Assembly (NCBI GenBank): GCA_963851265.1
Contig: CAWKNZ010000004.1
Location: 1-64,000 of the forward strand
Direction of reading: 5' to 3'
Length of the DNA: 64,000 nucleotides
From: an uncultured Gemmatimonadales bacterium
GTDB lineage: Bacteria; Gemmatimonadota; Gemmatimonadetes; Gemmatimonadales; Gemmatimonadaceae
Shown here: piece after piece, positions 3,057-25,119 of the stretch
Layout of the letters: each line of letters starts with the position of its first letter
Numbering within the stretch: the stretch's first letter is position 1
Program-made: the position numbers and the translations under genes
Notes under the pieces: model-generated
Databases searched by the model: none
The model's input: the letters and a program-made list of their open reading frames with translations, nothing else
Told to the model about the DNA's origin: nothing

Positions 3057-4814
3057 CTACTGCCGGCAGGTGCCCCGCGGATCCGGCTTCGGTTGATCCA
3101 CCACCACACGGTGGTCGAGGTTCGCCACCTTCTGCGCGATGTCGTAGACGAGGTTGTCCACCCGCGCCATCCGGTCGTAGTCGATGTACTCCGGCTCGTC
3201 GGTCACCTGGTGGTAGTCCGAGTGCCCGCCCGTCGTGAAGAACACGATCGGGATGCCGTAGCGCGCGTACTCGTAATGATCGCTCCGGCAGTAAATGTTC
3301 ATCGGGTGGCCGTTCGCGTCCATCGAGTAGTCGAACACGAAGTTCGACTTGTCGTCCTTGTTCACCTGCTCGACGATGTTCCCCAACTCGGTCGAGAGGC
3401 GGCGCGAGCCGACGAGCTGCAGGTAGTCCGGGCCGCCGTGCAGCACCTGCCCGTCCTTCGACAGCCCCGTGACGTCGCTCGCCGAGCCGCGGCCGACCAT
3501 GTCCATGTTGAGCTGCGCGACGATCGAGTCGCGCGGCACCGTCGGGTGATCGGTGTAGTACTCGCTGCCCAACAGCCCCTTCTCCTCGCCCACGTGCCAC
3601 ACGAAGAGGATGGAGCGCTTGGGCCGCGCGTCGCCCTTGAGCGAGGCGAACTTCTCTGCCACCTCGAGCACGCTCACCGAGCCCGAGCCGTCGTCGTCGG
3701 CGCCGTTGCTGATGCTGTCGGCGCGCGTCGACCCCGGGTGCGCCTTGCGGTAGTCGGCGAGCATCTGATCGACCCGCGCCTGCTGCTCGGGCGTCGCTTC
3801 CTTCCCCTGGTCCTCGGCCCCTTCGGGACGCACCAGGTGGTTGTAGATGCGGATCGAGTCGTGGTCGACGGCGCGGCCGGCGTACCCGATGTGGTCGTTG
3901 TGCCCGCCGACGGCGACGTACTCGCCGGCGAGCGACGGGTCGCGGCCGGGGAGGATGGCGACGACGTTGCGCGCGGGGAACGGCACCGGCGTCACGTTCA
4001 GCTTGATGTCGACCGTGACCGGACGCCCCGGGGCGCCGGGCGCGAGCCCCGCCACCGGCGCGGAGAACAGCTGCTGCCCCGCGCTCGGCGCGAGGAACAC
4101 GGTCGTCGGCCCGGTGCGCGCGCCGGCCGTCTTGCTCGGATCGTCGACGAACTGCGCCGGGCGGCTGAGGATCGGGATGTAGCGCTCGTCGATGCCGTAC
4201 CCGGCGACCACCGCGGCCTGCGGGTACAGGCGCGCGAGCCCGCGGCGCATGAGGCGCAGCGACTGCGGCGTGAGCGTGAAGACGACCATCTTCCCGACGG
4301 TCTGCTCCGGCGCGATCATCGACGCGGAGTCGCCGAGGGTGCCGCCGTAGACGACGGGCAGGTCGTGCAGCGAGACGCTCGTGAGCCCCGCCGCCGCCCA
4401 GTCGTGGCCCGCGACCAGGCGCGCCGGCGTGCCGGTGCCGCCGATGACGATGGCCGACGAGGGGTCGACCGCGCGGATCTTGAACGGCAGCGTCTGGAAA
4501 TAGCCGCCGTTCTCGCCGGCGGGCTTGAGCCCGAGGCGGCGCACCTCGCTCGCGATGTAGTCGGTGCCCTTGACGTTGCCGAGCGTCCCGGCCTCGCGCC
4601 CCATCATCGAGTCGTCGGCGAAGATGTAGAGACGGGTCATCAGGTCCGCGGCCGTGATGGCGGCGGTGGTCGGCTGCGGCGCGTGCTTGAGCGGGAGCGC
4701 GGTGGCGGGCGGCGGGACCGCGTCGGCGGCGGCCTGCGCGCGCGCGCGCGCCAGCGGCGCGATGGCGAGGGCGGCGGCAGCGGTCAGCGCGCCGAGGCGT
4801 GCAATACGTGACAT
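3057..4814 (-). CDS. Secreted M28 family metallopeptidase
   Basis: Signal peptide; HNDH, NGADDDGSG, GEEKGLLGS, NMDMVGR, SDH, YH zinc-binding motifs. Confidence 0.88.
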   Translation of the reverse strand: MSRIARLGALTAAAALAIAPLARARAQAAADAVPPPATALPLKHAPQPTTAAITAADLMTRLYIFADDSMMGREAGTLGNVKGTDYIASEVRRLGLKPAGENGGYFQTLPFKIRAVDPSSAIVIGGTGTPARLVAGHDWAAAGLTSVSLHDLPVVYGGTLGDSASMIAPEQTVGKMVVFTLTPQSLRLMRRGLARLYPQAAVVAGYGIDERYIPILSRPAQFVDDPSKTAGARTGPTTVFLAPSAGQQLFSAPVAGLAPGAPGRPVTVDIKLNVTPVPFPARNVVAILPGRDPSLAGEYVAVGGHNDHIGYAGRAVDHDSIRIYNHLVRPEGAEDQGKEATPEQQARVDQMLADYRKAHPGSTRADSISNGADDDGSGSVSVLEVAEKFASLKGDARPKRSILFVWHVGEEKGLLGSEYYTDHPTVPRDSIVAQLNMDMVGRGSASDVTGLSKDGQVLHGGPDYLQLVGSRRLSTELGNIVEQVNKDDKSNFVFDYSMDANGHPMNIYCRSDHYEYARYGIPIVFFTTGGHSDYHQVTDEPEYIDYDRMARVDNLVYDIAQKVANLDHRVVVDQPKPDPRGTCRQ

Positions 4815-24563: not shown

Positions 24564-24953
24564 TCAGGCGGACCGGCTGGCCGCGCGCCTGGCGCCCTTG
24601 GCCGCGGTCTTGGCGGCGCCCTTGGCGGCCGTCTTGGACCCGCCCTTGGCGGCGGCCTTCGTCGCCGACTTCCCGGCGGTCTTCGCGGCACCCTTGGCCG
24701 CGGACTTGGCGGCCGTCTTGGCCGCGCCCTTCGCGGCGCCCTTCGCCGGCGCCTTGGCGGCGGGGCGCGACTCGGGGGCGAGACCGGGGTTGGCGCGCCG
24801 GTGCTTGCGGAGCTCGCCGATGAGCCGGTCGAGCACGGCGGCGGTGCCCTCGCCGCCGGCGCGCTCGCGGGCCATGAACTCGGCGGCGGTCTTGCTGATC
24901 CAGACCGTGGTCTGGTCGGCGCGGTACTTGGAGTAGCGGTCGGCGCTCGGCAT
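24564..24953 (-). CDS. Small basic protein: putative ribbon-helix-helix domain + histone H1-like (xAAK)n tail
   Basis: TTVWISKTAAEFMARERAGGEGTAAVLDRLIGEL has beta-alpha-turn-alpha RHH pattern; C-terminal Lys/Ala 4-mer repeats; GGGAG RBS. Confidence 0.75.
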   Translation of the reverse strand: MPSADRYSKYRADQTTVWISKTAAEFMARERAGGEGTAAVLDRLIGELRKHRRANPGLAPESRPAAKAPAKGAAKGAAKTAAKSAAKGAAKTAGKSATKAAAKGGSKTAAKGAAKTAAKGARRAASRSA

Positions 24954-24977: not shown

Positions 24978-25119
24978 CGTTAGGACCAACTCATTAGGAA
25001 TATTCCTAACGTCGGCAAACTGTGCGTATGGGGCGCAATCCGCAACCATAGCCTAACAAACGCGCCCAACGCGGCGCCCCGGCGCCCGCCCAACGGGCGC
25101 CCAACGGCCCCGCCCAACG
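24978..25119. promoter_or_regulatory. Operator-like array: 16-bp palindrome TTAGGAATATTCCTAA plus repeated CC(T/C)AAC boxes
   Basis: CGTTAGGA 24978; palindrome 24994-25009; GCCTAAC 25051; GCCCAACG at 25064, 25088, 25099, 25112; AT-rich relative to flanks. Confidence 0.7.

Follow-up and report, generated by a model that had tools for sequence, protein, structure and literature searches.

The 8-nucleotide word CGTTAGGC is strongly over-represented in the genome studied here and in many of its relatives, and it probably belongs to a real and undescribed protein-plus-site system in which one of two unrelated small basic proteins appears to act as reader. In the window, by which we mean the whole 64-kb stretch of DNA that was analysed, the candidate reader is a 129-aa protein (24564..24953, minus strand, from ORF translation) composed of an N-terminal helix, a domain resembling the ribbon-helix-helix (RHH) fold, and a Lys/Ala tail. 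We infer, with moderate confidence, that this protein binds CGTTAGGC, limits its own transcription, and acts as a sequence-seeded nucleoid protein.

The window contains 21 copies of CGTTAGGC where 1.2 are expected, as dispersed exact sites on either strand between 11253 and 63888. These are part of 1,396 copies in the 4.6-Mb genome, in which CGTTAGGC is the top 8-mer at 24 times the order-3 Markov expectation and occurs on 12 of 12 contigs at similar density. The word is non-palindromic and its copies are divided between the strands without overall skew (708/688), with local skews in 150-kb bins of this 12-contig draft; a strong strand skew by replichore is the mark of Chi and KOPS words. An earlier, sequence-only reading of the window had claimed sites about every 2-3 kb, in agreement with the mean spacing of 3.25 kb and median of 2.2 kb found genome-wide. 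Site density climbs with local GC content, low-GC regions holding 3.5 sites per 20 kb versus 8.4, and convergent spacers are mildly enriched in CGTTAGGC, partly through stop codons. Stop codons that form part of the word number 162.

By crude gene calls, 1,021 of the 1,396 copies are genic. The main codon frame is NCG-TTA-GGC, with 777 copies; Val-Arg was considered as the main frame and rejected, as it accounts for 22 cases. This usage dominates a rare codon, since 797 of the 1,264 TTA codons fall within (A/T/S/P)-Leu-Gly, 777 of them as exact CGTTAGGC, and outside CGTTAGGC contexts TTA makes up 0.4% of Leu codons. The word is also conserved. Across a 230-kb alignment with a congener (80% identity), 32 of 65 sites match exactly, compared with 5 of 117 for other TTA/TAA 8-mers and 27% for all 8-mers.

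Copies of CGTTAGGC keep a minimum distance from one another. A compatible codon context less than 100 bp from another site is written as CGTTAGGC in 1 of 212 cases (0.5%). The share rises to 8 of 244 (3%) at 100-200 bp and 25 of 224 (11%) at 200-300 bp, and between 300 and 4,000 bp it is 18-24%. Two control words had no such gap, and in samples from other genome groups CGTTAGGC pairs closer than 200 bp occur at about half the expected number. At gaps below 30 bp, close inverted pairs number 12 against 12.7 expected.

Site-free gaps of 20-45 kb are present in ordinary chromosome regions. The largest in this genome is 45 kb (C1:182875-227962) and spans mnmG, parA, parB, and mnmE. Exclusion of CGTTAGGC from the origin or parS as a general feature was rejected, as the parS gaps are just 3.6-7.8 kb in G160, G059, G261, G210, and G004. 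Two copies of a palindrome, TGTGGCACGTGCCACA, lie beside parAB in the genome studied here, G000 (C1:192709 and C1:195715). The palindrome is found exactly in four members of the genus (G000, G001, G003, and G004), no canonical parS within one mismatch was found in G004, and TGTGGCACGTGCCACA is likely a non-canonical parS. Elsewhere in the family, some genomes poor in the word carry their few copies in arrays on one strand with a spacing of about 550 bp (G027:C95 and C43, G025:C3), a pattern that would suit integron attC core sites (GTTRRRY). Short tandem repeats with units of 7-26 bp built on CGTTAGGC or CGTTGGGC, many of them intergenic, occur in G185 and G067 (L052-L081).

The candidate reader gene has a GC3 of 0.98, and its product has a pI of 11.3 and a net charge of +21. 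A conserved N-terminal helix, DRYSKYRA (residues 4-12; 24918..24944, minus strand), precedes the RHH strand and could possibly provide an extra DNA contact. It is followed by the predicted RHH domain (residues 13-56; 24786..24917, minus strand), delimited from a structural model and homolog conservation, so that the conserved head comprises 56 residues. The histone-H1-like tail (24597..24764, minus strand), identified by a tetrapeptide reading, consists of 14 xxxK units in an unbroken run over residues 64-119, ten of the 14 being exact xAAK, which bears out the earlier count of about 14 Lys/Ala units. Eleven homologs share 75-97% identity over residues 1-62. Close homologs carry the label of hypothetical protein in the source databases, where they are assigned to Gemmatirosa sp. 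and to a Gemmatimonadetes bacterium. The strand DQTTVWISK is near-invariant among homologs, and Y7, T16, S20, and K21 do not vary in any of 81 sequences matched by pattern, T16, S20, and K21 being partly fixed by the search pattern. Some homologs are only 58 aa long and lack the tail, and their host genomes hold 3,145-3,896 CGTTAGGC sites, about one per kb. The tail is therefore optional in the family and not needed for the system, and the view of it as an essential part of the reader has to be abandoned.

Judging by their translations, the genes on either side of the reader gene are one of catalase-like/ferritin-like type and one resembling TldD/PmbA. Neither a toxin gene nor a ParA gene adjoins the reader gene, as the sequence-only reading had stated. 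Type II antitoxins are recognized by a conserved adjacent toxin in the same operon, and none was found here: the neighbors, compared by eye, are ordinary enzymes that differ between lineages. In the loci read, no nuclease, methylase, or other effector is conserved beside the reader gene.

The fold of the reader is predicted to be ribbon-helix-helix. An AlphaFold2 monomer model (pLDDT 75, pTM 0.46) contains a helix at residues 4-12, coil at 13-20, and helices at 21-30 and 37-54. Among 48,161 solved chains, the 50 that matched the model best were mostly RHH proteins aligned over residues 13-56, including ParD2, MazE6, TraM, NikR, CdbA, PutA, AmrZ, Arc, MatP, and omega; the RHH labels follow in part the entry titles. 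The Z-scores are modest, reaching at most 5.0, a value that common arrangements also give, and the monomer model shows coil where the strand should lie, so the evidence for RHH lies in the consistency of the match list. Searches of Pfam, PHROGs, NCBIfam, and PDB sequences with the reader gave nothing significant. In Pfam, no RHH model reached the cut-off and VAPB_antitox alone appeared, at E 0.017-0.038 in 1-3 members, and the Atlas neighbors of the reader (RHH_1, RHH_3, and VAPB_antitox at 0.85-0.89) are leads only. The predicted fold thus agrees with the RHH pattern first claimed for the N-terminus.

The region upstream of the reader gene ties it to the word. Within 142 bp (24978-25119) lie seven sites within one mismatch of CGTTAGGC, none of them exact (0/7). 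No denser cluster of this kind exists in the genome: it ranks first of 3,764 peaks (the control word reaches a maximum of 4), and the reader gene ranks first of 3,520 crude gene calls by upstream near-copies. Five other ORFs in the genome have Lys/Ala-rich stretches (C1:34044, C2:38635, C2:48877, C2:317990, and C3:193414); they have 0-2 near-copies upstream and promoter clusters in none of the five. At the reader gene, five near-copies with the same direction (25051..25119, minus strand), 11-13 or 24 bp apart, are located upstream of a putative -35 box: TGTTAGGC at 25051 and CGTTGGGC at 25064, 25088, 25099, and 25112. The putative promoter, TTGCGG-N17-CAGTTT (25017..25045, minus strand), was assigned by eye and its -35 side is conserved; it falls below the threshold of a consensus promoter scan, which found none at this gene. 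Three near-copies lie downstream of the putative -10 box (24978..25011), namely CGTTAGGA at 24978-24985 on the plus strand, CATTAGGA at 24992-24999 on the plus strand, and CGTTAGGA at 25004-25011 on the minus strand. Two of these belong to the seven, and the third copy, with two mismatches, completes a palindrome, TTAGGAATATTCCTAA (24994-25009), formed by CATTAGGA at 24992-24999 and CGTTAGGA at 25004-25011. These palindrome-bearing near-copies, kept as 2-3 half-sites in congener loci L002-L004, are a candidate autorepression operator.

Three congeners and a second genus retain this promoter arrangement, and similar upstream arrays are found in G001, G003, G004, G059, and tailed metagenome loci. 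In the 250 bp upstream of five tailed genome loci, near-sites occur at 27.2 per kb versus 1.4 elsewhere, and at 36 metagenome loci at 11.5 versus 2.7 per kb. The cluster is absent from five tail-less genes of genus g54 (3.2 versus 4.5 near-sites per kb).

The number of CGTTAGGC copies is bimodal across 301 genomes of the family. We call genomes with at least 100 copies word-rich, a cut chosen after seeing the table. By domain profile, the RHH reader family is present in 11 of the 301 genomes, and 10 of these 11 are word-rich, versus 78 of 301 overall. Near-copy clusters were sought in five word-rich genomes without the RHH gene, and one lay directly upstream of a gene for a 94-aa basic protein, which defines family B. 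Family B occurs in 69 of these 301 genomes and consists of unannotated basic proteins of 88-134 aa that are unrelated to the RHH reader and have Lys/Ala-rich tails, mostly N-terminal. Near-copies of CGTTAGGC lie upstream of its loci (L064:718-1002 in G083:C37, L082-L113, and L234), with 18.5 near-sites per kb in the upstream regions of 29 loci versus 2.4 elsewhere. Its model shows three strands followed by a helix at low confidence (pLDDT 54), an arrangement that may resemble the AP2/IBD fold; searches with Foldseek and of Pfam and PDB returned no match. The family B profile has no match in the genome studied here. A weaker second family B paralog, with about 45% identity, is present in genera g66, g67, g71, and g72.

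The two families divide nearly all of the word-rich genomes between them. Among the 78 word-rich genomes, 67 have family B, 10 the RHH gene, and 1 neither; among the 223 word-poor genomes, 2 have family B, 1 the RHH gene, and 220 neither, and no genome of the 301 has both. The 220 include G011, G229, and G248, which are flagged unpublished, and the tally leaves out weak RHH matches in G210 (E 0.005) and G250 (E 0.01) and a family B match with stops in G173. Related genomes in these counts are not independent. However, in an RpoB tree of 27 genomes (without the fragment G073, and without G014 and G109, which have no RpoB match), word-rich and word-poor lineages interleave and the RHH carriers form two separate clades, the deep nodes being weak; the co-occurrence of gene and word is therefore not the marker of one clade. 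In genus g54, the RHH gene, in its 58-aa tail-less form, is found in exactly the 5 word-rich of 13 genomes. The sequence-only reading had expected orthologs to accompany enrichment of the word, and had counted motif-rich genomes lacking the gene against its proposal. The expectation holds for 10 of the 11 carriers, but 68 of the 78 word-rich genomes do not have the RHH gene and are, taken literally, such contrary cases. Family B is present in 67 of these 68, which indicates replacement rather than refutation, and it appears to fill the same role as the RHH reader in most word-rich relatives.

Exceptions exist in both directions. Three carriers are word-poor: G109 (RHH, 91 copies), G064 (family B, 85 copies), and G271 (family B, 34 copies). 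The RHH homolog of G109 (L028) is diverged, with Y10A, D13E, and E35Q relative to the reader in the window, and may have been weakened as a reader or acquired recently. Profile searches found neither the RHH gene nor family B in the word-rich drafts G040, G036, G038, and G108. Assembly gaps or recent loss are plausible for G040, G036, and G108, as they have the family B dialect, are drafts 87-94% complete, and have congeners that carry family B; G038, by contrast, is 98% complete and lacks the family B dialect. Family B is present in G018, which is outside the tally, and an RHH search gave no match in the word-rich G002 and G017 (78-80% complete). In a second family of 16 genomes, family B was found in 1 of 4 word-rich genomes and in 1 word-poor genome. 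A search for diverged RHH homologs in word-rich genomes returned chance matches only, and a search of viral contigs turned up neither family.

Genomes with different readers tolerate different variants of the word. We scored these dialects as the excess of word variants per 100 exact copies in four samples from RHH carriers and five from family B carriers, each of 68-200 kb except for the genome studied here, two of the RHH samples sharing one genus. The excess of CGTTGGGC is +13 to +178 in the four RHH samples and -5 to +4 in the five family B samples. Conversely, CGTTAGGT has an excess of at most 1 in the RHH samples and of 9, 14, 22, 20, and 1 in the family B samples, and CGTTATGC has no excess in the RHH samples and 2, 10, 11, 8, and 1 in the family B samples, both variants being in excess in 4 of the 5. 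The promoters of the reader genes use the dialect of their own genome type: CGTTGGGC makes up 19 of 34 sites in RHH promoters and 0 of 134 in family B promoters, which use CGTCAGGC, CGTTAGGC, and CGTAAGGC. If the two proteins are themselves the readers, genome and promoter dialects should both follow the gene carried, as they do. The proposed RHH system is thus tied to CGTTAGGC by promoter cluster, co-occurrence, and dialect, but as a description of the word-rich genomes it is incomplete, as most of them use family B.

In the mechanism that we propose, RHH dimers would fill the exact CGTTAGGC sites scattered over the chromosome and, once these are full, would occupy the weaker copies at the promoter and shut off their own gene, such that autorepression would match the level of the reader to the number of sites. 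RHH proteins commonly autoregulate through short repeats, and it is from this established behavior and the anatomy of the promoter that we infer the autorepression step. Each strong site may nucleate binding over about 200-300 bp; a second site within that distance would then add nothing and would rarely be kept. Where present, the Lys/Ala tail may add non-specific DNA affinity or bridging. If family B took over from the RHH reader or the reverse, the genome tag would have outlived at least one change of reader. We favor nucleoid organization as the purpose of binding, because H1-like tails seem to have been attached independently to both readers and CdbA offers a precedent; the case for packaging specifically is thin, and draws on the tail, the small size, and the analogy with CdbA. 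A broader idea, which we hold to be somewhat less likely than not, is that Gemmatimonadota possess sequence-programmed chromatin, in which a word written into rare codons every 0.7-3 kb seeds a histone-tailed protein with a minimum spacing of 200-300 bp. On this view the reader changed from one of two unrelated folds to the other on at least two occasions, and with each fold the variants tolerated in the genome shifted to the dialect of the new reader.

Two features sit uneasily with an RHH reader: CGTTAGGC is asymmetric and an RHH dimer symmetric, and two unrelated folds on one 8-mer would be unusual. Both would be explained if a third factor bound the word and the RHH gene and family B were its regulated partners or antagonists, which would also place near-copies at both promoters and cover word-rich genomes with neither gene. 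But the tolerated variants change with whichever gene a genome carries, including in the two separate RHH clades, a match that looks harder to explain by one hidden factor, and both proteins look like DNA binders; we regard a third factor as rather unlikely. Integron integrase was considered in this role, or as cause of the word, and rejected, as it does not track CGTTAGGC (50 of 78 word-rich versus 118 of 223 word-poor genomes). A conventional RHH repressor that controls its own gene through an operator similar to CGTTAGGC only by chance would accord with the frequent autoregulation of RHH proteins and with the absence of the RHH family from most word-rich genomes. Against it stand the concentration of carriers among word-rich genomes, the perfect exclusion with family B, and the dialect match, and we consider it very improbable.

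The remaining alternatives concern what the word is for. CGTTAGGC could be a self-DNA tag built up by biased uptake or recombination, with the two proteins as intracellular readers or helpers. Its density of 0.3-1.3 per kb, its presence on both strands in non-palindromic form, the preferred codon frames, the dialects, and the sparser sites in low-GC regions all resemble such a tag, and HIP1 has been proposed as an uptake signal (PMC13756078). The proteins that track the word, however, are small and basic and have, by eye, no evident signal peptide, unlike the pilin receptor ComP; close inverted pairs show no excess, and the arrays of weak copies at the promoters would suit a cytoplasmic protein that regulates its own gene, so that an uptake tag seems to us unlikely. 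Alternatively, the reader might mark self DNA within the cell, such that phages and plasmids arriving without the tag would be silenced, degraded, or kept out, defense being what maintains the sites. Gene and word are gained and lost together in a patchy manner, low-GC regions are poor in sites, and neither reader is found in viral contigs, as defense would have it, but no effector gene is conserved beside the reader in the loci read, and ordinary chromosome regions contain the site-free gaps of up to 45 kb. We consider defense decidedly unlikely.

If the preferred reading of an autoregulated, sequence-seeded nucleoid protein is true, a DNA-binding protein shapes synonymous codon use genome-wide (777 of 1,264 TTA codons), a binding code survives replacement of its reader, and chromosomes can be tagged, and possibly packaged, in a manner not described before.

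Taken separately, hyper-abundant words and nucleoid proteins of RHH type are already known. The DNA uptake sequences DUS and USS are non-palindromic words found inside genes about once per kb; their lineage dialects match the reader ComP, a surface pilin, and many of the sites are paired in terminators. CGTTAGGC is like them in having hundreds to thousands of copies, on both strands and in preferred codon frames. It differs in that its candidate readers look cytoplasmic, inverted pairs are unenriched, and weak copies cluster at the reader promoter. MatP is an RHH-containing, sequence-specific chromosome organizer with a few dozen palindromic matS sites in the terminus region only, whereas the sites here number hundreds to thousands genome-wide and mark no single chromosome domain; the reader matches MatP structurally (PDB 3vea) at Z 4.0. 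Lys/Ala repeat H1-like tails are found in HupB, Hc2, and AlgP; here there is no HU or Rsd-like domain, and the tail, which the family can do without, is joined to a reader predicted to be specific. In a literature search that covered few subscription journals, we found no description of CGTTAGGC, the RHH reader, or family B, and no word with interchangeable readers and matching dialects, in line with the earlier claim of an undescribed protein-plus-site system.

The closest protein precedent is CdbA of Myxococcus xanthus, described as a small RHH nucleoid protein with global chromosome binding and a sequence preference, 569 ChIP peaks, and about 7,000 monomers per cell (PMC7156744). The reader matches CdbA (PDB 6sbw) structurally at Z 4.8, with an rmsd of 3.5 over 46 residues at 9% identity, and a PDB sequence search at E up to 10 gave no match between the two. 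CdbA binds c-di-GMP and, in tetrameric form, recognizes a direct repeat of degenerate sequence (PMC7156744). Here, in contrast, the sites are single strict 8-mers, 24-fold enriched and written into codons, the H1-like tail is optional, and the reader alternates with an unrelated protein.

The closest precedent for the word is HIP1 of cyanobacteria, a hyper-abundant octamer that, like CGTTAGGC, is found lineage-wide; it is reported to be conserved across the lineage and has been proposed as the site of a chromosome-structuring protein (PMC5861425; PMC13756078). HIP1 is the palindrome GCGATCGC, and it is reported to be recognized by methylases and to have given no binder in EMSA (PMC5861425; PMC13756078). 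Hyper-abundant words such as HIP1 have long been without an identified binding protein (PMC5861425), whereas the non-palindromic CGTTAGGC comes with two small candidate readers and predicted variant preferences, which makes the purpose of the word testable in vitro.
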